NCBI RefSeq assembly: GCF_037042905.1
Contig: NC_087252.1
Span: 6,884,001 to 6,948,000 of the forward strand
Direction: 5' to 3'
DNA length: 64,000 nucleotides
DNA from: Lytechinus pictus
Taxonomy: Eukaryota
Shown: piece after piece, positions 8,716 to 43,600 of the stretch
Layout of the letters: every line of letters starts with the position of its first letter
Numbering within the stretch: position 1 is the first letter of the stretch
Made by a program: the position numbers and the translations under genes
Notes under the pieces: generated by a model
What the model was told of the DNA's origin: nothing
The model's input: the letters and a program-made list of their open reading frames with translations, nothing else
Database searches by the model: none

Positions 8716-8760
<45 letters not shown>

Positions 8761-9424: not shown

Positions 9425-9477
<53 letters not shown>

Positions 9478-9522
9478 ATATCCATCTCTCTGTCTTACTC
9501 TCTCTCTCTCTCACTCTCTACT

Positions 9523-9565
<43 letters not shown>

Positions 9566-12832: not shown

Positions 12833-13320
12833 AATTTGAATCTAATCCCCCATTTCTGGGGAAAGTAAAACATAATGCCCATTACATCGTGTGCGAGAGG
12901 CATATCGTTTGTGTAGAAGGAGTAAACAAAAGAAACAAAAGAAACAAAGAAACAAAAGAAACGAGTTCAAACGTATTGCATATGCTGTGCACATATCAAC
13001 GCGTGCGAATTTTCGGCTGGAGAGGTTGATCTGACCCATGAAATCAATTGCCAGTGATCCACCAATAATCCACATTAAATGTAATATCGATTCGATGGAC
13101 TGTAATGATCTACATCTAAGCCTTCATTCAGTAAGTTTTTCCTCACTCAATATGTACTCAATTTGTTTGAAAAACCACTTTCTTATCCATGTCATAATCT
13201 ATTTTAGGTCCTGCATTTCGAATATCTCCAGCCATCAGTCGTAATATACATGCATGTATGGTGGGTGTCGCGGAAAAGGATTTTGCACACGAAAAGCTGA
13301 TCTGTAGGGCCTGTAATAAC

Positions 13321-13450
13321 CCCCCTGTGACACAAAGCTTAGCATTGATTGTAGAGCAGTTTTCTACGTTTGATTCTATTGACTATAACGCACAATCAAT
13401 CTTAAAAATCAAGTGTATGATTAAGCGTTAACTTTTGTGTTAGGGGACCC
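13321..13450. mobile_element. Short MITE; related copy at 24601-24740
   Basis: Inverted ends ACACAAAGCTTAGC / CTTTTGTGTTAGGGGACCC; same architecture at 24601-24740. Confidence 0.6.
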
Positions 13451-13992
13451 TAATATTAGCGTCCGTGAGGACTGCGAAAGGTCCCAAGTTCTGTGACGTT
13501 TCCCGCGGCCGGCACTGTACGTGTCGTCAACCTACGACTGACGTCCGTGACATAACAATTGAAATATCGCTGTACTTGTATAAGGGTTCAATTCAGGGAA
13601 TACTTGCCAATAGTATCGTTTTGTTTCCAATACCTGTTAAGGGTAAGGTTTCACACGCCAATGCTTGATAAGGGGTGCGTTTTCAGAATATGGAAAATAC
13701 GTGTTTAGGGTGCTTTTCTAGACCACATGGTCGTGCATGGTATCCACTCGCCAATGGAAGTGGCCCCCGGGTACTACGAATTGGCCAGAGTAGTGATTTC
13801 ATAGTAATGTAAGGTAATGACAACTCGTCCATTCACTCCAGTAAATGAAATTGCTATTTCTTTCAAAAGTTTTACCTCACATTATATTATCATTTTAAGG
13901 ACATAACACAATATGCAACCTTTAATACATATGACTACTGCCTAAGGTCGCATGTAAGCGAATTAAAAAAAAACCCGACTATTCCTACTTAC

Positions 13993-14322
13993 TATGAATA
14001 TCTAAATCTCTTAATTCCTGTCTTTCCAGCTCTGTGAGCTGATATCCAGTAGACCGACATTCCAAAGTTTGTAAATGATTTTCTTGAGTTGCTGGGAATG
14101 TGAACACACTCTTTGTATTAGATAATGGTGGATTAGATGGTGTTGGTGGGTGTGTTTGCATTATCGTCTTCCCATCACCATTAGTCTGTGCAACATTATT
14201 CAGATACCATGTGATGTTAACTGGTGGTTTGCTTCCAACAACTTCACACGTTGCTTCATACATGTCCTCTCCACTACTACTTACAAAACTTGTTACAGTT
14301 GGTCCAGCTAAACTCCCAGGAG
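13993..14322 (-). CDS. Copy A Ig C2-type domain exon
   Basis: 330 nt, open, phase 1-1; paralogue of 49238-49567. Confidence 0.9.
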
Positions 14323-16837
14323 CTAAAATGAGAAGAAAAAAAAATACACAAGTGACAATTCAATAATTCACATCACTTTGGTTTATACCATAACTAACTT
14401 TCATACGGCACCCTGTAGAAAAGAAGTGGAATACTGGTCTTAAAATAACTAAATAATTATAGGAATAGAGAAAATTGGGACAAAATTAAAAGGTGATCCG
14501 TCGATTTTGACAGACCACCGAATTATGATTTCATGTAAAAATTAAGAAATGGGAAAATGGGGTCATGACATTATCAACAGCATCACATGTTGCTTTATAC
14601 ATATCCTCATGGTTTACCTAGGTACTAATCACATTCAATGTCATATTGGTGCAGCTAGAGAAGGAATAATGCAAGGTAATCCATTTACTATAAATGATAA
14701 TATCTATTACCCTTTAGCTTAAATAAGGCTTCTAAATCTAAATCTTAGGTTCTAATTGAAATCAATAAAAATTACATTCTCATGAACTCTTCATAGCTTA
14801 TTTTTCAGTTTGCATGGCTGGTATCAGATTAATTTCCTTCCTCTCTTTTTTTATTTCCAATCCTTCTTGTATTCTCCCTCTCAATCTTTCGTCATTTATG
14901 TTGATCATAAGTAACTACTTTTCCATGTGTGTGTATTTATGCTGAGGTAGTATTACTTGAACAGATAAAAAACATACAAATTTAGCACTAAGAAATTTCT
15001 TCAAATTCGGACAAGGAATGACAAATTCATTACATTTATAATTTCCTAATTTCGTCAACGTTCTATACATGTCTTCATGAATATTCAAGGAGCAAACTGA
15101 TGATGTCATAGCCACACCTTTTTTTTTCTTTTACATGAAATTATGTTTTTCAAAGTTTTTCCTCCGAAAACTAAAATTGATTTAGTGCATTAATTGGGCA
15201 TTCATCGCTGCAAGTTATTTTTGTTATAAGTGATACATATCATACACACTCGTATCGAAATATGGAATACTTATGAATACATGTAAGAAAATTAGAAAAA
15301 AGAAAGTGTGAATGTGACAAAGGATGACGAGACGTCCCGTATTTCAATAGGACATTCTTTTATTCCGCATATTGTCCAATGTCCCGTAGGACTCTGTCCG
15401 GGACGCTATTTTCTCTCGTATTTCATGATTTGAACACATTCAAAAGAGAATATTATTTCATTTTACTTTGTTGTCATATGCAGAAAGAAGAAGAGAAACT
15501 CACGATAAAGAGATTTGTAAATTTTTATGTATTATTGTTGTGAAAATTTCCGTGATACCTACTGAGTAGAGAAAAATTTTGTAATCAGCAGTATACGTGA
15601 ACATAGGGTGTCCGTTCATGCTCCTATTATAGCCTTTCAAAATTTTTCATCCATTAGTGGCCTTCATTCTCATTGGATTAGTAGCATAATGCACTAAACA
15701 TGTAGAAGGACCACAACATAACTTAAGTGGGAAAATTAAGGCCTTTTTGAATGGCAATCTTATTTTGTGATATATCCAGAATCCTGTATATATTTCACCC
15801 CTTTCCTTTCCCTGTTTCCCCTTCTGTTATTTATTTATTTGTTTATTTTTTTTTCTTGCTATTGGATTCCGCCCCCCCCCCCCCCCCTCTCCATGTATAC
15901 GCCAGCGATTTGGACTTATTTAGTTGTGATATAATGGCACATTCAGCGTCATCAACTTTTGCTTTTAAGAAAATAGCTAAGAAATGTGGGCACACCTGTC
16001 TGTCATTTTTAACATTTGGTTTAGATTTCTTTCCTTTTTTCAGTACCAATTTCTGTACTACCATATTTCATATTTCTAAAGTCGGCTTAGTGAAACGAGC
16101 AATAACAATGAGAGAAGGAGTTTTTTGCAAATCCAAACAGAACAAAATTTGTACCCAAATTTCAAAAGTCAAAATTTAACATTATGAACAGGGAAATTAT
16201 CACGGAAAGGACAATATTAACAAACATTTATACACAAATGCCATATATTTTATTTGACCTGATTGTTCGTCTTTCCATATTCCTTTCCTATATTGTAAGT
16301 CGGTACACTAAGACCTCATGATGTGGTAAACAGGAAAATTGAAATTAAATCACATCTATTCGCTTTGCATTGTTTTTAAAAAAGCAGATAATGGGAAAAT
16401 TAATCACAATTATTGGCGGTATCTCTGTAATAAATCAAATCATGTGTAGATTACAGCATAAAACTAATCAACTACTCAAGTCATGAAAACGGACATACTG
16501 AAACTTCCCGGCCTAAACCCGTCCGAGTGAAATCAAATGAAAGAACAGAGAGGTCCAATGAAACTTTCTTTTTTTTTTCTCATTCCAAAACAAAATCTTA
16601 AGTATATGATAATGAGGTTATTTTTTATCATTTAGAAATAGGGGCGGCAGCCCGGCGAGGGAATTGGCATTTCATAGAAAATAATTTAATATCGGACCAA
16701 CTGATGTAGATCGTGAAGGGGCTTGGTGGATTCCATTACTTCTGAGGACTAATGGAGGAAATAAAAAAGGAGAGAAAACAAAAGGAAAGGGTATATTATT
16801 TTATATGTTTTTCTTAATAATGTGTCGAAATCTAGAA

Positions 16838-16908
16838 TCTATAGCCTCTTTGAGGCGTTCAAGTGCAGTATTCACAAGACAAGACAAGACAAGACAAGAC
16901 AAGACAAG
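16838..16908 (+). mobile_element. Very short 5'-truncated retroposon end with (CAAGA)n tail
   Basis: About 70-bp insert ending in ACAAG repeats; copy B has the empty site GAAATCTAGAACACAAAATT near 52908. Confidence 0.6.
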
Positions 16909-17764
16909 AACACAAAATTAGTTTTTTTATATAATATTTCATTGCAGTACCACTTCAATCATGTAAAGATGTGACTTTGTTGCAGTACATTATATTGTTG
17001 ACCACTTTATTATAACCATGGATCCTCCATGTTAACCTTGCTACTGTTACCACATATAGATATGAATATGGCATTGTCTTTCCTCTGTTTTGCATACTGC
17101 AAAAAATATCAATCCTATAAAGACTGTTATAATATTGACTAAACTCTATTATAATCCTGCTACTGTTACCTTTTTAATCTATTTGCATGTGTATGTATGA
17201 AAATATTTTTATTTTTTTAATACCAATGCAAAATAAACCAATCATGTAAAGAGGTTTGTGCAGTTCTCACTCATTCAAATCACTTTGCTAGAACAATGTC
17301 ACTGTTAAATTTACGGATAGTATTTCATACTTGCTAGTATTTTAAAATTCCAAATCATGTCAAATCATTTTCAATGTATTTGTTGTCTTTGTAACAATAT
17401 GTTTACATGCAGACATGCAAGAGACGACTCTGTGTTACTAAAACTTTAATAGGCCCTATTTATTCACAGGAGTAATTTTAGTAGTGTTTGCCATACTGAA
17501 TTTTTTTTAATGTTATTTCGTTACTATTTCTCTAATTTACTTTTCTCAATTGTCTCATTTCTCTTTCTATCTCCCCTTTTCTCTTTTTTTTTTCTCTTCT
17601 GCATTCGATTTGATCTCGAGATCTAATTTATATCTTAATTTCAGATGTTATTTTTATAATTGTTTTATATTCCCAATAAATTTGGTTATCAAATCGCTTA
17701 GGTTCTCAATTTTGCTGATATTCATTTATATAAGGTTGTTGTGACAGTAGTTGAACAAAAATTT

Positions 17765-18003
17765 GGTGATTTCAAGTCTGGTGTTGGCGTTGGTGTTGGT
17801 GTTAGTGTTGGGATTTGGATTGCTTCCCCCTTGCTCCAAAACTTATTCTGAGTTTGTAAAACTGATCGAGATCATGTTATTGACATCTCAACAACCAGTA
17901 AGTGACTTTTAAGGAGCATCTTCATTCTATGTTTGGTATAATACTCGTATAAGAATTGACCTAACACCAACACCAAAAGGTCAACACTAAACTTGAAATC
18001 ACC
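17765..18003. mobile_element. MITE specific to copy A
   Basis: GGTGATTTCAAGTCTGGTGTTG ... CAACACTAAACTTGAAATCACC; absent near 53765. Confidence 0.75.
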
Positions 18004-18521
18004 CACTATGTTTCTTAGTTTTTTTTCTTATGTCATTGTAAATTGAGTTTCCTTCAGTTGATATTCGGTCAGAATGTACGAAATATCGGAACCGAATATA
18101 GGCATGGGACTTATAACATAAAAGGTTTACTAAATCAGACCCCCCAAACACACACACACACACAAGCACTTTCCCACCCTCATCCACATACACACACAAA
18201 CAAACGAACATGAATTCCTCGTTTCGGGCCTGAAATATCTTTGGTAAGACTGTAATATATCCATAAAAACTTGGTTATTCACTACTTATCATGTTGCATT
18301 CACTGCGAGGATCACAGTAAGAACAACACTTACTAGCTTGTTCAATTTCACACCAGAAGTGAATATCAAACTTAAATTCCACTTTCCGGTGTCAGTCAAT
18401 GGCCAGCCGCGCGGGATACCGTGTATTAAATTATCTTCAAACATTTGGGGGGTTTTCTTGAAATTATAAAATTGAATGGAATTTGACAAGTAATTCAAAA
18501 AATGCTGTGCATTTTACTCAC

Positions 18522-18830
18522 CTTCCACCACAAAGTCCAAACTACCATCAGTACCCGGAATGTCACATCTATAGACCCCATCATCTGTTACTTCTGCACT
18601 AGAAATTTTCATCGCTGATTGTGTATCTGTCAGGGTAGTTACATCAAAGTTACTAAACTTTTCATCACCAGTGGCAGGGGCCGTTCCAGCAAAGATAATT
18701 TCACCTGTACTGTCATCTGCCCATATAATTAAACTTGCTGTTCCACCTGTAATATCACATGTGAGTGTGACATCAGTCCCAGCTGCTGCTGGCGAATTAC
18801 CGGTTACAGTTGCTGTTTGCCCATTGGTTC
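18522..18830 (-). CDS. Copy A Ig V-type domain exon
   Basis: GTNGQTATVTGNSPAAAGTDVTLTCDITGGTASLIIWADDSTGEIIFAGTAPATGDEKFSNFDVTTLTDTQSAMKISSAEVTDDGVYRCDIPGTDGSLDFVVE; open, 309 nt. Missed by the ORF track. Confidence 0.92.
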
Positions 18831-19672
18831 CTGGAATAAAGGAGAAAGTTCAAACAAATAAAACCAAAAGTCCATGGTATTGGCAGAAACATCATGGCAG
18901 GATAAAGGAATGAATCAAAATTAATGGTGCATTTATTGGAAAAGAGGTGTTTTCATCGAATACGAAACAATAGCGCGTAGAAAAAAAATCACACAACTTT
19001 TATTATTTATTGAAATGTTCACATATATAAAAAGTTAACTTCGGTTCGATGCATGGTTAAAACGAAATTGGCCAATACCAATTGCTTAGTTGTTTCACTA
19101 TAATAACGTAATTTAAGATTGAAATAAATAAATTTCTTTAATATTTGTAGATGTTGTTTTAAAGTTATAAAAACTTGTTTCTAACTTTAAACAATATTTG
19201 TTTTAAGTGATGGCTTAAACAACGCTCTTGTTTTTAAGAACGTACAGTGTTGGGAGTCTATCGTAGGCTTTCTCCTAACGATCCTTATCGATCGAACACA
19301 TTTAGACAGATATAGGTAGATATCATCATCCAGCTTCATATTATTGCAGCAAATAATACTAACAGATACAAGGGACTTGTTACTAAGTTCTTGACCTCAT
19401 AGCATGAGAATTGTTATTATAGTAACTTTGTTTCATTCAATTGTATCTTGTATTTTGTTTGGGCGTTGAACATTGTTACCATGGTAGTTAACATTGGCTG
19501 GTAAATTTACCATTTAGGCATCGTGTTCCTATTATAGGAAACATTTAGCTTGTAGGCTCATTGAACTATAGCTGCTCATCAGTAAACACACAGCCATTAT
19601 GAGAACAAATCGGTCCATACGTCCTTTCGACTACTCCTTTTCAACTCAACGAATTTTTTTAAATATAATTAC

Positions 19673-19754
19673 CAACAACAAGCATCAGAACTGAAAATGC
19701 ATGCCATGAAACCAGGCCAGCCATCACCTTGGACATGTCAGTGGTGAACAGCAT
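19673..19754 (-). CDS. Copy A signal-peptide exon
   Basis: MLFTTDMSKVMAGLVSWHAFSVLMLVV(G), 82 nt, donor G|gtaatt. Confidence 0.8.
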
Positions 19755-20578
19755 GTTATTCTCTTCCTTATGATAGATGATATCTCATACAATGTTCTGG
19801 CTTCAAATGTTTTCAAAATTAAGTTCATCTCCAAAACCTAGGTTTTCAAATTATAAAACAATGTATATATTAATAGCGTTTATTATTGAATAACATGGTT
19901 GATTTACTTACTTTAAATTGCATTACGACCCATGACCTAGGGAAGCATGGGTGCTGAAGGATCCCCTAGAAATCTGGTAGGTATGGTATATAGCAGAAGG
20001 TTATAAAATATCATCTTCAATTGGTAGCAAAAGTCTTCTTTTTTTCCTTGTCAAAATTTATCCTGACCAAAATTACATTCAATTTGTGGTGGAAACCATT
20101 TTTTGGCTTGTCAAATGTAAAGGAGCATCCCCTGTCTATAAAATTTGTCCCCAGGACCCTGTTGCAATCGTTGAAAATCAATAAATACTTTTAAAAAGGA
20201 TATGTCCAGTGTAAGAAATATGAAATGGCTTACTAGTTTGCCACTACATTTATACTAAATTACCATGCACTCTCATCATTGTGGGCCTCAACTGTTCTTC
20301 TTCCGATATGTTGAGGTCCGTGATTTACAGGATGCTAGAAGTTGTTCAGTACAGGTTCTTTTTTTAACTCAGTCGACTTCTCAAAGCGTATTGAATTAAT
20401 CGCCTCGAATTCAGGCTGGTATGCCACAATTAGAATTTTTACCCAAAATCAACTTAATCTTGAAGCTAAAACCCTACCTTTTTTGATTGTCATTTTCTTC
20501 TTGTCCAAATCACAACCAATCAATTTACAGTTCATAGCATATTTTACAACACTGAACATAATAATACAAATAACTCAC

Positions 20579-20880
20579 CTTATACAGTTATCACCCATTC
20601 AACTCGTTTGTATCCTACTTCACTTATTTGGTCTGTTTTGTGAGCACAGTGCAGTTCGACGAGCACTTAATTCATTTTGTCAATGTAAACAAAATTTTAT
20701 AAAGTTCCTGCTTTAAAAGTTGAATTTGCAGTCAGTATAATATATACGTTTTTCATGAAGAGGGCGTAACAAGAAACATAGTCGGGGTTATATTGAGCGA
20801 ATGCAGCGTGGAAAACCTTTGGTGTTTCTAGTCAAGATTTCCTTGCAGTCTGATTTTCCTGTGAGGGATCTTAATAATCG
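20579..20880 (-). promoter_or_regulatory. Copy A probable non-coding first exon and proximal promoter
   Basis: Donor AG|gtgagt at 20579/20578; homologous to 58120-58400. Confidence 0.55.
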
Positions 20881-21624
20881 GCAAAGGTAAAGAGTACTCA
20901 GTATTGAGGCTGAAAATTAAATGGTTTTAATAAAAAGAATTAAAACAGAGGGTAAAGAACTAACAATGTTATGAAATTTCAAAGGTATGTATAATTTCGT
21001 TGAACCAATTATTTCATTTTAAGAGGGATATAAACGTAACACACACACACATATGAAACCATAGATTAACTAATATTATAATATGATAAGAAAAAGGAAA
21101 GTAGGGATGTGACGTCATCAGCCAATCTATTGCATATTTATGACCGCATGCAAAAACATAAAAAAATTGCCGAACTTTACATTTGATAATTTAATTACAT
21201 TTAAAAATCAATTTTTGATTAAATTTCATTTGTAGAATTTTAATCCATCTATTTATGAATAATTGACTATAAATATTGCATATAATTATGGTGTAAGAGT
21301 GAATTATTTTCTAAAACTATGGTTTCTAACGAGATATATCATATCCTGTGTTATTAAGGTGATAAACGCTGCATTTTGACATTGAAAATGGCCGCCATAG
21401 GCCCTTGTCGTGTACATGTACAAATTGAATGGGGAAAATTGGGATAATTTTCACATAAGAACATATTAGGCGGCCATTTTGCTTTTTTTATTATAGCAAT
21501 TATCTACTAAATTACATAAGATATGATATATTCCATTAGAAATCACTTTTCAGACAATACTTCACTGATACAACATTCAAGCAAAGCCAAAATCTGTTAA
21601 AATCATTTGTCCTTATTCATATTG

Positions 21625-22135
21625 CGTATACATTCGTAATTCAGAAGCTTCGTTATTCCGAAGGTTCAGATATTCCGAAGGTTCGTTAATCCGAAAGCGA
21701 AATAAGGTTCGGATATTCCGAAAACGAAATGAGGTTCGTTGTTCCGAAGGTTCGTTAATCCGAAAGCGAAATAAGGTTCGTTGTTCCGAAGGTTCGTTTA
21801 TCCGAAAACGAAATGAGGTTCGTTGTTCATTTCGTTTTCGGACTAACAAACCTTCGGAATTACGAGCCTCATTTCGTTTTCGGATCAACGAACCTTCGGA
21901 ATTACGAACCTCATTTCGTTTTCGGACTAACGAACCTTCAGAATTACGACTCTCATTTCCTTTTCGGATTAACGAACCTTCGGAATTACGCCACAAATGT
22001 TCGGATTAACGAACCCTTTTTCGTTTTCGGATTAAAGAACATCGAGGTTTAGTCAATTTACGTGTTTCGGAATTACGAACCTTCGGAATAAAGAACCTTC
22101 GGAATTACGAACCTTCGGAATTACGAAGTGTAACC
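21625..22135. mobile_element. Foldback/Mutator-like element built of inverted arrays of about 15-bp repeats
   Basis: TTCCGAAGGTTCG arrays flip to CGAACCTTCGGAA near 21825; 9-bp TSD TTCATATTG at 21616-21624 and 22136-22144. Confidence 0.88.
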
Positions 22136-25005: not shown

Positions 25006-25065
25006 TCACATCTCCAGAGTAGAAGCATACAACCCTTCATCCAAGTCATTCAGAGACAGGTAACT
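25006..25065 (-). CDS. Copy B terminal coding exon (Tyr-containing tail)
   Basis: tttcacag|AGTTAC...ATGTGA = SYLSLNDLDEGLYASTLEM*. Confidence 0.75.
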   Translation of the reverse strand, partial: SYLSLNDLDEGLYASTLEM

Positions 25066-28000
25066 CTGTGAAATAAGAAGAAAAAATCGTTACAATTTTA
25101 ACGTCATCAAAAATTAAATTTCAAACCAGTAATGATAAATTCAAATTTACTTCTATAATGACGGTACTTCACAGATTAGATTTACATAGTTATTTATTTA
25201 TTTCCACAAAAACAATATATAATACATGTTATAACGATCAATATGATAGTCAACTGCATGTCAAGAGAGACTCCTGTTAAAAGAAAAAATAGACTCCTTG
25301 TCATATATATGGTACACATTAAAATCATAGAAATTAATATACAAAAAAAGCAAACAAATAAGTGCCTTCTTCTGTAAGATATCTGTACGACCTAAACGTA
25401 GTTGTACGTTCACATCCCCAAACCACATTCCAATAAGAGATATGTGTGTATATACTTACATGTAAGAGAGCTCGTAATGAAAAATATAAGACAGAATCGT
25501 TTTAATCTTACGTGTTTTTTTTTTAAATCCTTTCCATACTCTTCAGGATGTTATCAAAGTTACTCCGATTTGGGGGTTCCTTGTCCCAACAACCAGTCAT
25601 AACTGCATACCTTTGAAATAAAGTAAAGGTGATGTGTAAAAAAAATTACATAAGTAATTAAGAAGTATTAAAAATGGAATTTTAAGACGGGTAGGCCTAC
25701 TACAGGCTGAAATTTTATGATTTAAACAGACAGGGTTAATTTACACAAACAAAACCCTGAAAATTCCTTCAAAATCGTACAATAACAAAGGTATGATATT
25801 TTAAAGTTTTGCACTATTTTTTGTGAAAAAGTTGTACGCATGTCCACTCGAGTATGCAATGAGAAAGCTGGTTCTCACTTCTTCTCTTTTAAGATATATG
25901 AATTTAGATTTTTTTTTTGTCCGCCTGAAATGAAAAAATGAAATGAATATCGGTGAGATATTTATTGCAGTATTTTTTTTGTTTAAAAAAGACATATTGT
26001 ATGCACGTAAGAATAACAATATGCAATAATAATGATATCAGGTAATTACTTAAGAAAACACAAAATGGTACAAAACATAATCGGCCCACTTATTGGATAC
26101 TTATCGTGCATGTATATAGCTGTTAAAAAAAAATCAAAATTCAATGACCTCGACATTTGTCAGATCTTGATGAAATCATAAGCATTTTGCTAAATGATTT
26201 TTACTATACTTTAGATGAAAATTATTTTCAACACGGAGTACCCCTTTAGTAAAGACCATTCAAATCATGTTTCCCAAGGATTGTGCGAAAAATCTGTATC
26301 TACGAAGATTGATTTTGTTAAAACTTTGTTGTGAATTTGGAACATATACGATAAATGAGTTTACGAGAGCAAACAACAAGTGAAATTCTCTATAGGTCAA
26401 TTTACAATTCTAGTAATCCTGGACAAGCAAGTTTTAGATTTTTTTGATTAAAAAAGGAAGTATTACACTTCTTGTGCACAGGGACGAGGGCGTGGCATCT
26501 GGTAACCATTATCAACCTCCGTCTGAACCGTGCTGAATGTCATATTTGGGTATGGCCTTGCACCTATCAGAATGTAAAAAGGAACAATGATATTATGAAG
26601 CATCTGAATATAGGATATCTAGAAGTTTCCCAAAATAATCATATATTGTTAGAAGTAGAAGTATGAACATGTAAAAGTTTGATTCCTTTTAATTAATATC
26701 TCGACACCGATAAACCGCTCATCCATGTTTGCAGATGTGCCCAACTGACAAAGAGGCGTAAATCTCAAGTTTTTTGTTCCGTTTATCACAGCTAAAATTA
26801 CTGCGTCTAATGTTGTACAGTATATCATTCATCTGATTGTCAGTCACAGGTTTAACCATACATAACCTAAATAACTTTATTTGTAGCAATTATTAATAAT
26901 TTATTAATTAATACATTTATATAGCGCATTACATTAACATTTCAATGCGCTTTAATCCCTTTTAAAATGTCCAACATCACCCGGCGTTTTATGTATTATT
27001 AGAATGTTGATATCATTATCTTTCGAGCCGAATAAAGATATCATGTAAAATGTTATTTTGATATTCCCGTCATTGTAGTTGTCGGTATTGTAGTAGCAGC
27101 AGTAGTCATGCTAGAAAAAGTAAAGATGTTGTTTTTGTTGTATTTTGCCTTTTATCAAAATCATTTATCATTTTATCATCGACAACTGGTGGAAATTATC
27201 ATGATCACCACAATCGTCAAACCCATCATTGTTATTTTGTGATATATGACTAAGATATTAGACATTAACACACAAAACTTCGTGCACCTCCTTTCTTACC
27301 CAGTGTCACGATTTCCCACAAGACGATACCAAAAGACCATATGTCTCCTTCTGTTGTTTGGTCACCCGTTGCCATGGTTTCTGGTGAACTCCATCTGGTT
27401 GGTTTCTATATAGGACGGTGTGCAGATTACAAAGAATCTTGCTTTAACAATGATTCAAGCGATTGGAAATTATAATCTGCAGTGACCATATAAAATGTCA
27501 AAGATGTCTTAATATTGGCCTAAGCAATAATAGTCTGGTATAGTTGCAGGTTGGGAATCAAAGTCAAGGTTCACGTGAATTATGGTTTTCAGCCTCGCTT
27601 CATTTAGTACCATTTATTTTTATTTAAATTGTTAAATAGGAGATAGATCTTTATAACAAGCCTACAACATAAACATTCATTATTGTAAGGCATAACGAGT
27701 CATACTTACAGCTACGTCACCAAAGATCGATGAAGAAAGTCCATAGTCTGATATCTTGCATTGCTTTCTTTCTCCTAGCAAAACATTGTGAGCGCAGAGA
27801 GCCCCGTGGATGATCTGAAGAAAAGAGAGATACACTTGCAACTCTATATAGTCTTTAGGGTATTCATATACATTTATTTTGATCTCTGTGAAAGTCGACA
27901 AATTTCCCGTCTTACATCTGTGTTAAAAAAGGAGCGATAAACCCTTCCTATTCCAATTGTAAGATTAATAATACCTGTAATGTTTCAAAACAAAAATAAT

Positions 28001-31000
28001 TTAGGTTTAAGGAGAGTATGGCTGCCGAAAATATTTCTGATGATATGGTTGTACAGAGTTGCAACCCTAATTGCGAAAACGATTTTCTACTGTATCTTGG
28101 ACCGGTCAAGTTTTCAAGTCTGACTTAAAGGGTCCATTTCAGCTTAAAGGGCGATTTTTATTTAAAAATTCAACTGCCTTCCTTTCTCCTCTTATGCCCC
28201 TTTTTTGTTAAGGAATCTCATAAAAATACCTTCTTAGATGCAAGGAACTGCATCCCTTTAGCAACCTGCCAAGCCAAGTAAAGTAGGGTACCCTCATCAA
28301 TACGAACACCGCTTGGTTTGAGATTGCTGTACGTAGGTTGAGATTGCACCCCTGAAGTCTGTAGATGGGTAAGGAGTGTACCCCCTGAGATGAACTCATA
28401 CAGAATACTACCTGCATGCGTGAATACACATCAAAAACTGTGGTGTTAACCGGTATACATAGATGACCACACCAGTTATTTTACACCGGTGTTGAATCGG
28501 TGGTGTTAGTTTTACACCTAGAGGTGTCATTACAACACCTTTGGTTGTTACATTTACACGCTATGGTGTTATTTTTTATCTTTAGGGTGTAATCTTAACA
28601 CCTCGGGGTGTGGTCCTCTATTAACACCAACTGGTGTCAGCAGTTTTTACAGTGTAATAAATTGTAATAGAAAGGAAAACTCTGTGACGTCATGTTTAAT
28701 AATTGCATCTTCTTCATTGTAATTTAGGATAAGTATCCTTGAATTATCAAATGGAATGGATAGTTATTGTGTCTTCTCCTTTTGTTTTGGTGTAAGTACC
28801 CCCAACCCCTCCCCCTCTCTGTGTCTCTCACACACACTCTCAATCTCTTCTAGGGGTTTTCACTCATCAGAAGGTGCAATGTGCCATCTTTTAATTGGTA
28901 ACTACCTCTCTCTTGTGTCTCGTCGAGATGCCTTGGATGAGGGAAAGCGGCCAACGAACTCTTTAGCGATTAAAACAAATATTGATATATTTTTGTTGTT
29001 TCCAAGAGAACAAATTATATTCGATATTATATATTTAAGAGGGTTTACGGACCTTGGTCTTTACAATATCCTAGGCATTTGACAATATTTGGTTGATCCG
29101 ATAGCTCGTAAAGTACCTTGATGGCTTGAAGAAATTGTAATGACTTTGTCACGCGATCTAAGATAATGTATAGTACATAATGATATAATGGTATGACCTT
29201 TCATTTTAATATTCCCCTTCCGGAGTGTTTACCCTTGACCAATTTCTGGACAAGCAGAGAAAATATCAACAACAAAAAATTATTATTATTAAAAATGGGG
29301 GCATGTTTTCCCCCCTTTCAGTAACCCCTGCCCCCCTCCTTCTTTGATCCCGGTGAAACTGAATTCAAGTGAAAGGGAAGCCTGTGGCGTCAAAACTATT
29401 TAATTATTTACTTTGGTTTCCAATCTGCTTGTTCAGAATAACATCCTATAACGATGTGGTAATAGCATAAATAATTGAATTAAAATTTAATTGAGATGAC
29501 AAATTAAACATGACCTTCATATTTGAACTTCTCTCATTGTTTTTAATTATTGTTAACTTTACGAGCTACAAATCATCACCTGGTATTTGCCTAATAGCAA
29601 CGTCGAGATGGTTTTGTTTTGATCGAAGGTCTCCCTTCCATACCTCGCCGAAGTCACCCCGTCCAATCGAGCCAAGTCTGGTGAAGAATGTCACGTTTTC
29701 ACGGGAAATGACGAAGGAGTGGGTAGGACCAAGTCTTAACGTTGAGTATGCTGCATTGTTATAAAACATATATATTTTCGACTAAGTTCATTTAAAATAC
29801 ATGTACTTAAAACACCTAATCCATTATGTCTGATCTTGTGAGATTTGTAGTAAGTGTCTTGGTCAATAATATATTTCCAGAGAATATAAAGTAACTATGG
29901 ATTTGAGATTAAAAAATAGAGGGATACTCCGGGCTGAAAATAAATCATATCTTAAGAAATAGAAAAGAATTCAATGAGCAAAGTGCTGAAAATGTCGTTA
30001 AAATATGATCGCAAATAACTCAATTAGTGAAATTTCAAGTTTAGTAATATTTTGTGAAAACAGTTATATGCACATATTAAGATGGACTGATGATGCCATG
30101 TCCCCACATTTTTTTTTCTTATGTTATTACTTGAAATCATAATTATCTAAAATATTCATGCAAGTTGTAAGATATGTCTCCCTCATGACAAAATAGTTGC
30201 AGTAATGAATATCCGGTTCCATGACAATTGCTCCGCCGACATTTGCTCCGCCGACAATTGCTACGCAAAATAAGACAACTGCTCCGCCGACAATTGCTCC
30301 GGACAGTTGCTCCGCCGACAGTTGCTCCGTCGACACTTGCTCCGCCGATATGTGCTCCGTCGACACTTCGTCCCTTATTTCACGAAGTGACGGATGAGCG
30401 CGCAACTTTTAAAAAGTTAGTTTTGAGTAAATCGCGTTCAAAGGTTTAGACCTCAATCTCAACGTCTTCTACGTATGCAGGGTGAATAAATGTCATATCC
30501 TCGTATTGGGCATATTCTGGACAATATTCAAGTCCAATCATTTGCATTTTACTTAAATATTTAAGAAGATAATGAGCTGTAAGCAGAACCATATTTTCGT
30601 GAAAAAAATATATTACGGTACGCGCTTAGATTTATTTTCACGAAGTGACGGATAGTGCTCCGCGCGCATAACCGTCACTTCGTGAAAATCCGAAATTCAA
30701 GGACGCGCTTCAATTTTGTTTTTACGAAGTGACGGGAAGAAGCTTCGCCTTAGTCCCACGTATAGCCTTGTCGATGCAATTCGATAAATAGGGTCTAGAT
30801 ATACATAATTTCTTTATTTGCTATTGTAAGAAAAATCAATTCCAAATGTCAGATCAATTAGGCCTACATTTACTTCTTTTAATAAAAAAAATCACTTTAA
30901 ATACTTTGATTTCATTTTTCAAGTAATAACAGGAAGACCAATTAACACACGTGTTATACTTATGCCTATTTCATTTCAATATTATCTTCATTTTTGAGAG

Positions 31001-34000: not shown

Positions 34001-37000
34001 TGTCAATCCAATATCGAATTTGTAGAATTGATAGCAGACTCAATATTTTAAATTGCCCTTTCCAAACAAAACCTGCCCAGTCAGTATGGTACTACAAGAT
34101 TATTAAGAATATATTTTATATACTCTATTTACCACTGATATTTACAGCAAATATTCCAATTAAATGTTTCCAATTTATAAGAAAGTTTCAGCTGAAAATA
34201 TGATTACATGTCAAATTTCAATGCTCTAGGGCAGTACACAATGCACTTGTCAAAATGGAAATAATGTTCTTTTACAACTTAGAAATACACTTGTATCTGC
34301 TAAATGCTAACATATTCCCAAATTAATATTTTCTGGTTATTATAACTTTGAGTCAATATATTTTTATAACTACATTATTTACTAGATTTGCAATTGAAAT
34401 TAATTTTGGTAATGAGTGCAAATGAATGGATGGCTGATACTGACAGGATGTCATGTTGGATTATAACACTATGAAAATTCTCACCTTGAATTGTATTGTT
34501 AAATAGCGAGTGTACTGGTTCCAGGACTTCTCTCATTTGTTCTCTGAAACATTGCTTACTGTATATACTGCATCTGAAAAGAAATGAAAATATCTTCATC
34601 ATGATTATGATCAGAACCGAGGTGCAGTTTATTTATGTAGATTCTTTCATTTTCTGTAAAATGTCATAGAGATAAGGGCGAGGGAGTGGCCACCAAACAA
34701 CAAATTATAAAGCTCTATCTACATTAGATGTAGACTGACTCTTGACTCGAGATGATTTATTTAAAACAGAAATCTCCAGTAATCCTCATTTTAACTAAGG
34801 ACTCAACTTATTTGCACAAATGGGTTGGCCACTAACTTAACTGAATTAATTCATGATCTCAGCATTCTCACTGTCATTTATAGAAATCCCCCCCCCATCC
34901 CCTGGGGAGGGGGGTATCTTTCCATTACATATGTTTGAAAGTACTACTGAATTTAGATGATGAGTTAACTAACACTACAGTAAAGAAGACAATATAATCT
35001 ATGTATTTATTTCAGATTTTTTTGGTGGAAATTTATTGCAAATACTAGGCACTTGTGAAGACAAGTTAGAACATAACGAGTTAACATTGGACTCTTTTGG
35101 AGTCCAATGGCAATGCAATTCGTGTAAATTAATCTAGATCTAGGCCCAAAATAATGCCCCTGTAGATTTTTTAACCAAATCCTCAGCCTTCATTAAATCT
35201 ATTTAGTCTTGATTAATGTTGGGAAAATATTCTTACCCTTTTAGTTTGACTAAACTTAACATTCAAGTTGAATTGAGGACAAAAAAATGACACGCAATAC
35301 TCCATTCAATTTTCACTGACACGAAAATGAATATGTGGGGCAATGTATGGAAAGATTGGACGTTAATTTAAGGATTTTTGCGATCAGAGACGTTTAAAAG
35401 GGTTGAAATTACTCGAAATGACTTAAAGAGCTGCATTAAATTTATTTACTTTCCTACATTTACAAAAAAACTCACCATTTCATGGTCTTCGGCTGTTCCA
35501 GACTGTAAAAATTTGCCTTCCGTCACTTCGTGAAAAAACTCTTGAGTGATGAAGCGTATTCGTTTATTTTCACGAATTGACGGCTGCTTATCCGTCACTT
35601 CGTAAAAACAAGAAATCCTTAATCTGGGTATTTTCGTGTGTGCACTGTTGTCATAGCAACGTAATTAGAAATTTTTGTGATCTGAAACTTGTTGAGGTTC
35701 GAGATATGAATTAAAGATCTCCAAAAATGCAAAAAACTCAAAATTGAAAAAAATGCGATTTTTCTCGTATCCGTCACTTCGTAAAAACAGGGACGACTTG
35801 CTCCGCCTATATTTGCTCCGCCGATATTTGCTCCGCCGACATCTGCTCCGCCGACATCTGCTCCGCCGAAAATTGCTCCGCCGACACTTGCTCCGCCGAT
35901 ATTTGCTCCGCCGACATCTGCTCCGCCGAAAATTGCTCCGCCGACAATTGCTCCGCCGATATTTGCTCCGCCGACATCTGCTCCGATTATACGACAATTG
36001 CTCCGCCGATAATTGCTCCGCCGACATCTGCTCCGCCGTAAATTGCTCCGATAATGCCACAATTATTTATTTATTTTTTTATTCGTACTTTCATACGCAT
36101 AACAATTTTAGCACAGGCTGAAGGCGTCAATTTACCATGGAGCATAGCTCCATGAATTTACAAAGTAAACTTAAACTATGCTTGCATGATATATTACATG
36201 TCATAGGCCTACACAGGGGCCGCGGAACGGTTTTCAAAGTGAGGGCTGAGTCAAAAGTGGGGGGCTGTCCATGCTAAAAATCACAATCATATGGTCATTC
36301 TTACGTTTTTTGTACACGGCTTTGGAAAATTGGGGGGCTAAAGCCCCCCGGCTCCGCGGCCCCTGATACATGCATATAGAAAGAAATAGAAAAAAAAAGG
36401 GTAAGCACAAAGGAGGGATAGATATTCTTAATGCTTATTCATGGTGGGGGGGGGGAGCGTTTGTGTAAGTTTTATTACGTGCTTGGCGATTAAAATGAAA
36501 AAAAAAAACGCGTTTTCATGTAATCATTATAACCATATAGCTCCATGTTATAACAGTAGAAACAAATTAGACATAGGCCTACCCCATTCTTAGCGTCAAA
36601 ATCGCTCAGACTGGCGAAATATGCTCCGAAGTGGAGACATTTGCTCCAGGTGAAATTCAACGGTATACCCCACCTTATTTTGTCGAAAACCTGTACTGTA
36701 GTCACGCAAAATGTTTACTGTCGGCAAATTTTGTGCCATACAAACATGACCAAGACATTCAGTAAGTAAAAATTAATATTCAAGTAAATACCAACTTGTG
36801 AAAGGCTACATGTCGTGTCACCTTCTCGGCACACCCCTCCACTCTGGTTTCCATATCATCTCGTACACACAGTGCTCTCAGTCTGGTCTCAACATCCACA
36901 TCATGTCATACACACCGTAGGTTTTTAGATTATGATAATACTGTATATAATAGTGAGTTGCTTTTTTGTTTTATGTTGATCATGATTGTTTTCTTCACTG

Positions 37001-37616: not shown

Positions 37617-40600
37617 GGGGAGTGAGTGAGAGCTTGAGGAAAAAGGGAGGTGTATGACTTATTATTTCTGAATATCGCGATTTCTGTTTATTCATGGGAT
37701 TGTAATAAAAGGATAAACTTAACAAGTTCTCGTTATTATAATTTTTTATTTGATTTACTGATCAGAACATGATATAAATGAAATCATGAAGACTGTACGT
37801 TCTCGACAGTTTTATTGACGTTTTCCAACCAAAACTACACTTTAATGACTGCAAACACCTTCATTTTCACACGCTCGCAACTATGGACACATTATACATG
37901 TAATTGAGAGTAGTGTCATTTTCAAAACCTTTCTTAGCTGCAAGGAATACTGAATCTCATTTCCACAATGTGCATCTGAATGCACAATGCCTGTGTTTCT
38001 AACATGTACCCAAATTACCAAATTTAAAGAACACATGTTAAGATCTAATGAATCAGCAAAATAATCCACATTCTATCATGAGCAGCAGGCATAACAGCCT
38101 ATATACTCTTCAATACTTCAATTACAGTTTGTCGAAAGAAATAACACAAAAAAAATAATATATAGAATTGTAACTCTGGTAAATATATCCAAAATATTAA
38201 ATTAACGCATCGTGCTCTCATTTCTTTTACGAGATATCTCCCCCCCCCCCCCCGAGATATGCTTCATGTTTACAATTTAAAAAAGGCGTATAAATGTCCC
38301 CTTTCCATGTCAATAACAGCTCGTGCTTTGTGCTCGCATTATAAATTCAGTGAGATGCGTATTGGGTTTCATGAATTTGTAACTATATTATTGCTGGTAT
38401 ATATATTATTGTCTTTTAAAAATAACATTATTTGTTTAGACGTAATGAGAGAGATACATACATATATTCATTTATTATAATATATTTATATTGTCGCTAT
38501 TGCACAGAATAGAACAAAAATACAACCGAAGTCTATTTTTATAGTAACTCACCAGTAGCGTAATGAGCCAACAACAAAAAATGGAGGGGGCGAGACAAGG
38601 ATGACATTTATTTTCCTTTCCTTTATTCTTGTTTTTTCATTGGTGGGGAGAATGGGGGGATCCGTGACCCCTAGCACGCCCCTCCCCCATCTGTACGCAA
38701 GTGATGATCATACTTTCGTTTGAACCAAATTGAAGGAAAAAAAGTGCAAGGGTAGATAAGGCCGAAGACGTAAATAAAAATTATTGATAAAAATATTAAT
38801 AATTATAATACTGATAAATATACAATAAATCAAGCGGTCACCAATAAAAATAAACAACGTGAAAGAACAAAACGAGAAAGAGAGAGAGAGAGAGAGCCCG
38901 CGCGAATGTATGGTGTATAAGTTGCTGGAAAGCAGAGGAGATATTGTGTCCAGCACCCCCCCCCCCTCCCCAAATTCTCTCCCCGCTCAAGACCGGAGTG
39001 AAACCAATGATAATAATATATGAACAAAAATCCAGATTCACAATTTCAATGGGGAGTGTGTCATTCCCCTTCTCCGTTACAATTTGTCAAGTGGCAGCGG
39101 CAGGGAGAACAATTTGTTTTGTTTTTTTAAGCAGAAAGCTGTGATGATAGGGGGAGAATAAAATAAATAAAACATTAACGAATAACAAGAACAAAACAAC
39201 GACAAAACAATTTGTATCAGGATGAATTTCTTATCATTTAACATAGACCAACTTGGAGAAATAAGATGTTCATGCAATTGTCGTATAATCGGAGCAGATG
39301 TCGGCGGAGCAAATATCGGCGGAGCAATTTTCGTATAATCGGAGCAATTTTCGGCGGAGCAAATATCGGCGGAGCAATTGTCGCGGAGCAATTGTCGTAT
39401 AATCGGAGCAGATGTCGGCGGAGCAATTTTCGGCGGAGCAGATGTCGGCGGAGCAGATGTCGGCGGAGCAGATGTCGGCGGAGCACATGTCGGCGGAGCA
39501 AATATCGGCGGAGCAAATATCGGCGGAGCAAGTGTCGACGGAGCACATATCGGCGGAGCAAGTGTCGACGGAGCAACTGTCGGCGGAGCAATTGTCCGGA
39601 GCAATTGTCGGCGGAGCAACTGTCTTATTTTGCGTAGCAATTGTCGGCGGAGCAGATGTCGGCGGAGCAATTGTCGGGTCACCGAATATCCAATACGTGA
39701 AACCAGTTGTCAATTGAAATATTCTTTATTGTAGGAGGTGAACATTTTAATGAACATTATTGCATATAATAAAATACTAAGTTACAAGTGGGAATAACAA
39801 AATCATCAATTAACCCACTGAATATTCATGAAGAAATGCAAAAAAAAAAAATTTATAGTGATATAATACAAATCTTTAAAATGTCATAACCTTTTTCCCC
39901 TTCATAGAATTGGTAATGCTTTGTTTGATTTTCCTTTATCTATTGAAATAATATTATTTTCCGCCTGGAGTACCCGTTTAATAGTAGTGGTATACATCTT
40001 ATATAGAGTTCCCTCGCACCACTTAGAATAAAGATAAGGTAAACACCTGCTGATGCTTCAAATATAATTTTCACTTATCCTTTTTATGTACTTTTGACCT
40101 ATCGCCATAGAGACCTAATTGTGAATTATCAGGATGATAACGACATAGTATGAATGAGGTACTTTTTTTAAACAGAACATTAAATCAAAGTAGTTGTATG
40201 AATGCATAATGTTTAATAGAAAAAAAAATGTTGACAATAAAATACACGTTTATTTGAATAAATAATATTTAGATGGAGTTTAAGATTTAATGATACACAG
40301 CTAATATGCAGAATCAATAGAAAAGTTAGAAAATTTCCTTCTTAAGTAACTTCTAACCTCGATTCCCACTTTGAATCATCTCATAAGCCACGTTATCATT
40401 CACCTCCTGTGGTATATTTATTTCATTGCTGTAAAAAATATATAAATTGAATAGAGTTTATTTTATCTCATGAGAAATTATATTTTTTTGTTTACATCCA
40501 CTCAAAGGCATTTCATGGCACATATATATCAGCAACAATCACAATGAGGGAAGTGTTATATTATTCAATGAGTATTACCCATTATTAAAGCGTTCCTAAG

Positions 40601-43600
40601 AATGGGATTTAAAAAAAAAGTCTCAAAGAACGCCTTTATTATTTGAAGGATTTGGGTTTTCCCCTATTGGAAATAAAATCAAATATATATCTGTTGAAAT
40701 GAATTTATCCTTTGTCATCCTATTTCCGTCAGTTAATGTGTATGTATCTCAGTAAAATTTACGCGTGAACGTTTGAATTTACGTTAATACTAGCTTGTGT
40801 GTTGAGGCGAAGTGTGTATGGTTAGAAATGTGAGTGTGTTCCGTTCTTTTCAATGGTATAGGATGTTGTAAAGTTTGGTATAAATATGTGTGGTTATTTA
40901 GTATGGGCTGTTACAGTATCGGGTTTGAGGGTGTGCGCGAGTGGATGAATGTGTGGTGAGTGAGTGCAAGGTTGTACGGGCGTATTCGTAAGGTGAGTTA
41001 GAAGAGTGTGTGCATGCACGGGATGCGAGTTGTGTGTCAGAGGACGGGAGTGTTAGAGAGGGAGTGATGTGTTCGAGTGTGAGAGAGTTGTGTGTGTATG
41101 ATAGGGAGCAAATGTGAAAGTGCAGGCAGTGTCTGTAAAAGTGTGTGTATCTTTAAAGATAAGTGTGAGTGCGTGGGTGTGTGTGAGATTATCTGAGTGG
41201 GTGTCTGGGTGAGTGTGCGTGTTTTTTTTCATGTGGGGGAGAGAAAATGGTGTGCAAAATTTGTGGGTTTGGTTTAATGGAGATATGTACCTATTATAGA
41301 TTAATTGTAGTCATATAAAATGTGAGCGTGGGTGTTGCCTTCTAGGGTGTGTGTGTATGTGTGTCCGACAAAATATTTTTCCTTCTACTTACCTCTTATT
41401 ATTCTTTGACTCATGGAACTCTAGTGGATAAATATATAAATATACACGTTTACAATAGAGTGATGAAGGAAAAAATGTAGCCATATGTAAACTGAGATGG
41501 CAAAATAAATTCAAGAGAGCACTCGAGGTCAAGATGCTCAAGATTTGATATACCTTTGCCATCAACTTTCAGTTTTATCTCCCCTTTATAAAACATTAAC
41601 GTATCGATGATTATTTAATATCCCACCTACTTGAATTATGGTATAGTAATTCTAACACGATCTTACTCAGCGGAAATATGCTCAGATCTAGTTAGATAAA
41701 CGACAAGACACGATATGAGTAGCGGGGGGGGGAACAATGTTGCTTTAATGTGTATTTTCATGATCATCAGAAAAAAATATATTCCAACTTTGCACCTTTA
41801 CAAATATTAGACGAGGAACACCTTTAAAGTTGCACCTTTGAACATGTTCCTCTTGTGTTGGAGTTATACTCTTTTAAATTAAACAAGGGTTAACTTATTA
41901 CATTACATTACTTCTTCTTTTACATTCACATTTACTCTATGTGAATATAACTACTCAGTAATCACCTGGTTTGGTTTTTCCCCTAAGAAGAATGAATTGA
42001 ACAATGTTGACGATGATAGAAGCTACTAAGAGGATGGCTAAAATAGCTATTCCAGCAGATGCTCCAGAACTCAAACCAGACGGTGCACAAGGACATGGTG
42101 TAGGCTCGGGTGTAGTCTCTGGTTAGTGAGAGAGTTTTATATCAGATGTTAATATAGATTGTGGAATTTATTTCATATGAATTAATTCGTAAACCTGTAA
42201 AATCCGATTGATCATAGATTATATTTCAACCATAATCATAGATTATACTACAAACATACAGCAAGAGGTAGAAGGTCCATGCTGCAACCCAGTTTTCGGG
42301 ACGACATTCTATAATAAAACCCGTGCAGTATGTCAGTCATGTATGGTCTCATTTCTAAATCTAATTATATGTCCATAATTATTTTCAATCTTCAAATTTG
42401 CCGCAAAACATATAACAAAATAGTAAAATAAATCACTGTCCTAAACTGAATTTCCTTTAAAAGACAAGAAGAAAAACGTCTCGGCCCGGATTCACAAGGA
42501 GGAATGACTAAGTTCTATAGAGCTAGATAATAACTTAGGGCTGAGCTAAATTCTAGGGGGTTAGAATTTGTATTTCACAAAGAAGGGTAATGTTAACCCA
42601 ATAGTTAAAAAGGTAGTGAATTAAATATAATTAAATATAACAATACATGGGTTTACAACTAATCAGTTGCATACGTAGTCGACAACTGTTAAAATGCACC
42701 ATATACGGGTAATGGGCTACATTTTTATTTTACAAAGTTTCAAAGTGGCGAAGATGAAAGTCTAATTTTGAAGAATGTGATATCATATCTACAATAATTT
42801 CCTACTAAATCTGCATCTCTCCCACTTGGGTTTTGCGCCACCCCCATTATTACATATATTTCACAGTATTTTAGTCATTCATTGTTCATGTTCAAACATT
42901 AAATTAATGTGTTTGTGCTGGTGATGTGGTGTACTAAAGAGGTGCCTCGGCCTTTTGTCGGTATGTTTGAGGGAGGGTGTCTTTGAACTTTTTGAAGATA
43001 TTCCTTTTAACGAAAAAGTATTTCACTAACTTATGGCAGTATGATGGGTTTGATAGACATGCAGTATAATGACTTACTGAAAACATTTACGATAAATATA
43101 AATGAAATTCTAATGATAACATTAAAAATGATAATAGAGATAGCATTAATAATTATTGTTATAATACGAACAATAGAAATAATGATCATAAATAATATTT
43201 ACAATAATAATAATGATCACAATGATAATAACGGTGATAATAAAAATAACATTAAATGATAATAAAACTAACAATGATCAGAATAATAATTATAATAATG
43301 ACAATATTATCATATAATGTAAATACTACTAATAATAATTGGTATTTCGTAGCACCATTATCCTATAAATATTCTATTCGGCTGCGCAGTGTTATTTTTG
43401 TCATTATAAGATAGAAAAGGGACTTCCCAAAAAATATCCACCACCGAAAGAGGAACCTTATAAATAACATTTTGAAAGAAATGAATTTACTCTTCGTCTG
43501 GAGCTCAGGAAAACAATAGTAAACGGACTTTGGACCCTAATTATATCTTGAATACCAAAGCGAATTCGCATGATGTGTGCAAATAAATATCATATTGACA

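Follow-up and report, generated by a model that had tools for sequence, protein, structure and literature searches.

We analysed a stretch of 64,000 nucleotides (nt) from the sea urchin Lytechinus pictus (contig NC_087252.1, positions 6,884,001 to 6,948,000), called here the window, whose minus strand carries a gene with a receptor layout: signal peptide, ectodomain, one transmembrane segment and a cytoplasmic tyrosine kinase domain in a single gene. Its kinase domain had been described in a first-pass annotation as a maintained pseudokinase scaffold. The exons of this gene, referred to as the window copy, were mapped as follows (window positions, with the evidence in brackets).

55605-55686, minus strand: exon 1, start codon and signal peptide (sequence and splice site; 86% identity with the N-terminus of the RefSeq paralogue P0007)
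54813-55121, minus strand: immunoglobulin (Ig) domain 1, V/I-type (Pfam Ig_3 4.7e-10, V-set 1.3e-7, I-set 2.1e-7)
49238-49567, minus strand: Ig domain 2, C2-set (Pfam C2-set_2 2.3e-10)
48327-48599, minus strand: Ig-like domain 3, in which TGA (48525-48523, in frame) replaces a Cys codon (tblastn of P0007, 84% identity)
near 46870 (approximate), minus strand: one of the Thr/Pro-rich stalk micro-exons lying 5' of the transmembrane exon (exon mapping)
41966-42118, minus strand: transmembrane exon (exon mapping)
41393-41420, minus strand: juxtamembrane micro-exon of 28 nt (splice sites kept among paralogues; also in the RefSeq models P0007 and P0011)
40358-40428, minus strand: juxtamembrane exon with the tyrosine motif N-x-[A/T]-Y-E-M-I (motif shared with Lytechinus, Strongylocentrotus and Diadema members)
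29580-29750, minus strand: kinase exon 1, which holds the second juxtamembrane Tyr, the glycine loop and beta3 with Arg for Lys (exon comparison among copies)
29053-29157, minus strand: kinase exon 2, alphaC with Ala for Glu (exon comparison; junctions present in spliced contigs)
28230-28411, minus strand: kinase exon 3, hinge, insert and alphaE (exon comparison among copies)
27710-27814, minus strand: kinase exon 4, HGALCAHN catalytic loop, DYG and the beginning of a short activation loop (exon comparison)
27300-27405, minus strand: kinase exon 5, WSSPE and alphaF (exon comparison among copies)
26467-26563, minus strand: kinase exon 6, PYP and alphaG (exon comparison among copies)
25512-25610, minus strand: kinase exon 7, with a private 1-bp deletion leading to TAA at 25525-25523 (length 99 nt, whereas the 9/9 other complete copies compared have 100 nt)
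25006-25065, minus strand: exon 8, coding for the C-terminal tail and its two conserved Tyr (YLSL-x7-Y), but not in frame in the window copy (exon comparison)

The RefSeq models of the neighbouring copies (P0007, P0058 and P0059) agreed with this map exon by exon. The first-pass annotation counted seven kinase exons and overlooked the eighth, tyrosine-bearing tail exon. The seven kinase exons were also said to keep their splice sites and frame; all the AG and GT ends were indeed in place, but the exon 7 deletion breaks the frame and a stop follows the last kinase helix. An exon 2/3 junction moved by 4 nt was feasible in the window copy and was rejected, as 29053/28411 uses the conserved donor and is favoured by RefSeq models and contigs alike.

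The residue changes that had been read in the kinase domain were confirmed. The window copy has VAIRQ, with Arg for the beta3 Lys, LQAIK, with Ala for the alphaC Glu, and HGALCAHN instead of HRDLAARN, where the catalytic Asp is gone and the catalytic-loop Asn is still there; DFG is replaced by DYG, which keeps the Asp. The glycine loop, WQVAKGM, DIWSFGIVLWE, PYP and CW motifs were also found as described. WSSPE stands in place of APE, but this change is not diagnostic, Ser being there in 7 of 84 active kinases. A residue census was then carried out on 72 distinct family rows, isoforms and annotation releases included, with partial rows counted only where they covered a column. The 84 active comparators were selected for having K, D and D, and only their other columns are informative. 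In the family the beta3 residue was Arg in 59/60 rows, while the alphaC Glu (0/63) and the HRD Asp (0/60) were always lost; the alphaC column was Glu in 84/84 comparators. The catalytic-base position was occupied by Ala, Thr, Asn, Ser, Leu or Val, never by Asp. By contrast, the catalytic Asn (58/59), the DFG Asp (58/59), the APE Glu (57/57), the alphaF Asp (58/58) and the three glycines of the glycine loop (59/59, 57/59 and 59/59) were kept. The activation loop was short as claimed, with a DFG-to-APE segment of 22 residues in 53/55 family rows against 27-32 in active kinases, and carried no Tyr after DYG (0/55 family rows, against 71/84 active kinases with Tyr). Since paralogues and orthologues have the same losses, private decay of the window copy is ruled out as the origin of the motif losses.

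Loss of the beta3 Lys and the HRD Asp defines a pseudokinase. The definition rests on three residues in PMC13519141. By sequence, losing one or more of the beta3 Lys, the HRD Asp and the DFG Asp suffices; the family has lost the first two and kept the DFG Asp.

Members of the family were recovered by protein searches in L. pictus, L. variegatus, Strongylocentrotus purpuratus, Diadema antillarum and D. setosum, under RefSeq labels of FGFR-, Tie-, Fes- or Cad96Ca-like proteins. No member outside the urchins appeared among the matches listed (word-limited or top-150 lists), which shows an absence from sea stars and sea cucumbers only weakly. A search of 1.84 billion representatives was dominated by multi-kinase proteins; among these were P0092, P0094 and P0097-P0100, large proteins without a name in which as many as ten kinase domains, mostly degenerate, follow one another in tandem. 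Two phylogenies were built: a quick one on 101 rows, and a careful one on 42 rows picked from them, 9 of which were pseudokinases, with the trait columns dropped. In both, the pseudokinases formed one clade (support 99/97 in the careful tree). Its deepest branch is long, and its sister among Cad96Ca/RET/Tie-type kinases was not resolved by the careful tree. Copies of S. purpuratus and Lytechinus clustered by genus. Considering this separate clade and the lost active site, the members are not orthologues of FGFR, Tie or Cad96Ca as labelled; an intact FGFR-like kinase lies elsewhere in the genome (G000), at C12:6.65 Mb. The ancestor was a Cad96Ca/RET/Tie-type receptor kinase, and the beta3 Lys, the alphaC Glu, the HRD Arg and Asp and the activation-loop tyrosines were lost before Diadema split from Lytechinus/Strongylocentrotus. 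The sea-urchin receptor pseudokinase family is real, old and expanding, and it is unrecognised in the automatic annotation seen.

The ectodomains fell into several types: three Ig domains (P0007), a C2-set domain with a weak FN3 match (P0030) and Sushi (P0036). The member on contig C17 (G000:C17:11.163-11.185 Mb, L010-L012), whose kinase is closely related to that of the array, showed, as inferred from DNA, one WSC exon, a pair of Sushi exons nearly identical to each other and a transmembrane segment upstream of the kinase, which is the layout of the active sea-star kinase P0050. P0101 had one Ig-like domain without Pfam match, and the members of the deepest lineage (P0120, P0251 and P0252) had almost no ectodomain. 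Pfam scans of family members gave no cadherin or EGF domain. Active sea-star relatives have the same kinds of ectodomain (C2-set; WSC with Sushi), and active relatives with K, HRD and DFG exist in G000, for instance at C8:19.78 Mb and C1:42.08 Mb. The near-ectodomainless member at G000:C8:4.22-4.23 Mb (L059; P0252, P0251, P0120) is kept in Lytechinus, Strongylocentrotus and Diadema, and is a candidate membrane adaptor or co-receptor. A divergent member with one Ig-like domain is present as two nearly identical, oppositely oriented copies 9 Mb apart (C8:37.945-37.975 and 28.79-28.80 Mb); L. variegatus likewise has two records of it.

The window copy belongs to a tandem array. When G000 was searched with kinase exon 3, 12 matches were obtained among 15 candidates: nine at 90-100% identity within C8:6.67-7.14 Mb, a single one at 70% on C17, and a further two at 51-53% on C8. 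Exon mapping, which covered C8 6.63-7.20 Mb except 2.5 kb, gave 9 kinase copies and 2 fragments (at 7055 and 7069) across about 470 kb. Four of the nine copies looked intact: 7026, 6975, 6877 (copy A) and 6670, the signal exon of the last lying outside the check. These intact members comprise signal peptide, three Ig domains, stalk, transmembrane segment, juxtamembrane tyrosines, pseudokinase and two-tyrosine tail. Five were broken. Besides the window copy, 6814 had lost the kinase exon 1 acceptor and the juxtamembrane Tyr; for 6745 only an Ig remnant was found; 6698 had stops in Ig, transmembrane and kinase exons; and 7136 had lost one acceptor, its 5' part not being found in the mapping. One half of an intact copy, the next one in the tandem array, lies in the window, with its transmembrane and kinase exons to the left of it:

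5187-19754, minus strand: copy A, 5' half with signal exon and Ig1-3 (intact, equal to the RefSeq model P0058; lower end estimated from window-copy exon length)

The dead-kinase signature ran through the array. The beta3 Arg was present in all 9 copies having kinase exon 1 (8 on C8 and 1 on C17) and HG[A/S]LCAHN in all 10 copies having kinase exon 4; more distant members at C8:37.96, 28.79 and 4.22 Mb had the same signature. Copies A and 6975 were 93-96.5% identical from the transmembrane segment to the tail against 75-88% over the ectodomain, a contrast that suggests exchange between array copies. Of the other L. pictus records, 11/12 were less than 95% identical to any of the nine G000 copies, and copy content may differ between assemblies or individuals. 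Nine copies and two fragments, five broken copies and genus-specific expansions make up a picture of tandem birth-and-death evolution, in which array copies duplicate, exchange sequence with one another and become pseudogenes. The main point that the first-pass annotation missed is that the kinase belongs to a large receptor family, specific to its lineage, which expands in tandem and varies in its ectodomains.

Several repeated elements were observed in and around the two gene copies of the window. The juxtamembrane-to-kinase intron measures about 10.6 kb in the window copy against about 0.8 kb in copy 7026, and holds a 15-bp tandem-repeat element in three copies (30186-30368, 35796-36064 and 39274-39712). 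The intron between kinase exons 2 and 3 contains a high-copy repeat (28430-28640; contig depth about 12,000 in run X1). In a copy A intron there is a tandem array of about 153-163-bp units (3622-4585). At 7656-9946, 75-bp inverted repeats (98.7% identical) surround a TCTA microsatellite, which looks like a non-autonomous DNA transposon, and a palindromic element of 16- and 42-bp repeats lies between the two gene copies (21629-22132). Upstream of both copies, the segments 57616-58309 and 20407-21009 are 72% alike and have short protein-like open frames that matched no Pfam entry. Beyond the gene itself, six open frames of the window were scanned with Pfam, and none matched (0/6).

The ratio of nonsynonymous to synonymous substitution rates (dN/dS), a check that had been proposed for the kinase, was 0.15-0.30 in 30/30 pairs with dS above 0.1, and about 0.2 against the C17 copy at dS near 1. 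The family kinase is kept under purifying selection. Among the four closest copies the kinase values were 0.54-0.85 in pairs with the window copy and 0.30-0.51 in the others. The Ig domains evolve faster: four copies gave 106 nonsynonymous to 41 synonymous changes in the ectodomain against 33 to 37 in the kinase (p=0.0005). Among five copies only, 21/49 Ig replacement events fell in the 26/104 codons of loops like complementarity-determining regions (CDRs; p=0.005). A search of sequencing runs listed no holder recorded as RNA and a single run (share 0.05), X1, guessed to be RNA. Its spliced contigs spanned all seven kinase and tail introns; they stem from similar copies, not demonstrably from the window copy, and at the last junction their form is the intact one. 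Regarding the fold, P0007 matched Pfam PK_Tyr_Ser-Thr at 3.6e-66. A structure prediction, also proposed earlier, was run on the paralogue P0008 with an 88-row alignment, and yielded a predicted local distance difference test score (pLDDT) of 82 and a predicted template-modelling score (pTM) of 0.84; the top fold match was Tie2 (template-modelling score 0.76), with FGFR and RET folds also matched. The kinase fold is therefore predicted to be retained in the family. A feature search of the kinase in Atlas returned generic kinase clusters only.

The earlier claim of a maintained scaffold is accordingly supported for the family, by its shared losses and purifying selection, but not for the window copy itself, which carries two disabling lesions. 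The third Ig exon has TGA where 4/4 close paralogues have the Cys codon TGT, and the exon 7 deletion removes the two-tyrosine tail from the reading frame, which is therefore interrupted at 48525-48523 and again at 25525-25523. Having inherited the pseudokinase state and now bearing these lesions, the window copy has probably become a pseudogene not long ago, within a pseudokinase family that is maintained. Eight of nine peptides private to it occurred in no fetched protein, and the ninth only in an S. purpuratus paralogue. Its private changes were 11 replacement against 1 silent (Fisher p=0.006 versus the other copies pooled), which hinted at full neutrality. This was weakened by an intron control: of 673 intron columns 33 had private changes (4.9%), and of 640 replacement sites 13 (2.0%), a replacement/intron ratio of 0.41 for the window copy versus 0.26 for an intact neighbour. 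It follows from this control that the window copy was under constraint along part of its branch and that it broke recently. Both lesions may instead be assembly errors. A tail-less product from the window copy may also exist, considering that the annotated isoform P0069 of a neighbouring copy skips the third Ig exon.

A key aspect is what a receptor of this kind would do. The two tail tyrosines were kept in all four deep lineages, with the spacing of an immunoreceptor tyrosine-based activation motif (ITAM), the second half of which usually ends in Thr or Val. Main-lineage members of all three genera retained the juxtamembrane YEMI motif, which in most of them matched the pattern of an immunoreceptor tyrosine-based inhibitory (ITIM) or switch (ITSM) motif or of NxxY. 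The canonical patterns taken for comparison were YxxL/I-x6-8-YxxL/I for the ITAM and [ILVS]xYxx[ILV] for the ITIM. In the mechanism that we favour, the variable ectodomain would bind a cell-surface or extracellular ligand and cluster the receptor. The conserved juxtamembrane and tail tyrosines would then be phosphorylated in trans, either by a kinase of the Src family or by a sister receptor that is active, and would dock SH2/PTB proteins; we hold this succession to be rather probable. The dead kinase would serve as a scaffold or conformational switch, like HER3 and EphB6. The faster evolution of the Ig domains, together with copy turnover, makes a recognition role plausible, be it in immunity, wound response or cell recognition. 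A wider reading, offered tentatively and with more doubt than belief, joins these elements: interchangeable ectodomains (three Ig, Ig with FN3-like, Sushi, WSC with Sushi, or none) would be mounted on a single conserved pseudokinase whose juxtamembrane tyrosines are of inhibitory type and whose tail tyrosines have ITAM spacing, forming diversifying recognition receptors with copy content variable within species. On immune cells these receptors would be the paired or inhibitory counterparts of active kinases of the Cad96Ca type. Among the coelomocyte markers in the accessible portion of supplement 6 of PMC13043383, at least 18 rows and at least 9 genes are named Cad96Ca(-like) or Tie-1-like and are not mappable to the family; the gene ids of two known members (2/2) had no match among the supplement rows listed. 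The parts available of 12/15 supplementary files of PMC12521550 held no rows mappable to the family.

Several observations weigh against these proposals. The ratio of nonsynonymous to synonymous differences (pN/pS) of the Ig domains was 0.60-0.89 with intervals spanning 1, none being significantly above 1, and nonsynonymous to synonymous counts did not differ between CDR-like loops and framework (p=0.18, five copies); relaxed constraint therefore explains the Ig data equally well. The juxtamembrane motif is missing from P0036, P0101 and P0120, and short motifs of this sort arise by chance. The two-tyrosine tail was inherited from active relatives and is also found in active amphioxus and sea-star kinases, so that its ITAM-like spacing is not an immune innovation and gives by itself no evidence of an immune role. 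The conservation of the DFG Asp, the catalytic Asn and the glycine loop makes nucleotide binding or weak activity possible. As for the fold, the P0008 alignment included many active kinases, and the model from a shallow alignment of the family only (13 sequences) reached a pLDDT of 49.6.

Four other explanations were considered. In the first, the dead receptors regulate active Cad96Ca/Tie-type sisters, by heterodimerising with them or competing for ligand, with the pseudokinase surface as allosteric activator or dominant-negative brake and the tyrosines secondary. The active relatives in G000, the shared ectodomain types of active sea-star relatives, the highly invariant C-lobe and the deepest lineage, which, nearly without ectodomain, may work via a partner, all speak for it. 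However, tail tyrosines kept in every lineage suggest direct docking, and the tree leaves the sister group of the clade unsettled. We regard this explanation as unlikely in its own right; it is compatible with our preferred mechanism and does not exclude it.

A second explanation is an atypical kinase of low activity, or one that binds Mg-ATP with Arg in place of Lys, capable of weak autophosphorylation or of an ATP-dependent switch. It would account for the kept glycine loop, catalytic Asn and DFG Asp, and for a beta3 residue that is Arg rather than random. Against this, the catalytic-base position varies freely and is never Asp, the alphaC Glu and the activation-loop Tyr are absent, and Lys-to-Arg at beta3 is the classic kinase-dead change. 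This explanation is for these reasons improbable, and ATP binding without catalysis would also fit the mechanism preferred here.

Clustered plant ZED1/ZRK pseudokinases provide the precedent for a third explanation, in which copies multiply as decoys or baits, the dead kinase domain or the ectodomain being the target of pathogen proteins. Tandem turnover with genus-specific expansions, and the 11/12 L. pictus records that diverge from every G000 copy, agree with such a role. We give it little credence, since the kinase is conserved and partly homogenised between copies (A and 6975), the reverse of a diversifying bait. Finally, that the whole family consists of functionless relics, its shared changes dating from an early duplication, could be argued from the five broken array copies, the window copy included, and the two fragments, but is largely refuted by dN/dS, which stays near 0.2 even in comparison with C17, a distant copy (dS about 1), and with open frames in three genera and spliced contigs it is hardly credible.

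The family represents an independent origin of a receptor tyrosine pseudokinase, repeatedly expanded in three urchin genera with one dead-kinase signature. As a natural series, it allows one to ask why a receptor kinase is retained once dead, and which residues matter without catalysis: the glycine loop, the Asn, the DFG Asp and the beta3 Arg. Dozens of members are labelled FGFR, Tie or Cad96Ca, and expression studies in the urchin, a major model of development and immunity, may misread them as active kinases. If the recognition role were true, they would form a new receptor class in the expanded innate repertoire of the urchin. Literature searches found no description of this receptor family; the 2006 urchin kinome and the 2006 survey of receptor tyrosine kinases may mention members, and PMC4883820 reports for the former 21 urchin-specific kinases in the 'Other' group.

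By comparison with known systems, the kinase domains of Tie2, RET and FGFR were the top single-domain PDB sequence matches (Tie2 6.5e-49) and the top fold matches. These are active enzymes whose ectodomains differ from those of the urchin family; the similarity is the source of the RefSeq labels, and such automatic labels are misleading. The best-scoring single-kinase relatives, at 32-39% identity, were Cad96Ca/Stitcher-like and related expanded receptor tyrosine kinases of sea stars, sea cucumber and amphioxus (P0043-P0046, P0050, P0119, P0124 and P0156). They have the same two-tyrosine tail and the same ectodomain types but, unlike the urchin family, keep K, E, HRD and DFG and the activation-loop Tyr. 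Drosophila Cad96Ca is tabulated for wound healing in PMC6982143. As described in PMC9546547, the Hydractinia Alr allorecognition system has clustered three-Ig membrane proteins, genes along with pseudogenes, and some ITAM/ITIM tails. Alr2 appeared as a cluster among the feature-level look-alikes of the ectodomain (0.92), which serves as a lead only; Alr proteins are without kinase domain, and the likeness to the urchin family is one of analogy, from architecture.

A further parallel is with the receptor tyrosine pseudokinases of vertebrates, which are a handful of stable single genes. They include HER3/ErbB3, EphB6, EphA10, RYK, ROR1/2, STYK1 and PTK7 and, following the HER3 and Eph precedent, act as allosteric partners or signalling hubs (PMC13519141). 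PTK7, RYK, ROR and STYK1 were not among the best 60 PDB sequence matches. The vertebrate pseudokinases lie outside our trees, and their non-orthology to the urchin family is argued from clade composition and architecture. Like them, the urchin proteins are single-pass receptors with a kinase fold devoid of catalytic residues and a likely scaffold or allosteric function; unlike them, they would derive independently from the Cad96Ca/RET/Tie-type group. The joint loss of Lys, Glu and HRD Asp with the DFG Asp kept sets the urchin family apart, as does its existence as multi-copy tandem genes with copy turnover and several ectodomain types, where the vertebrate ones are stable and single.

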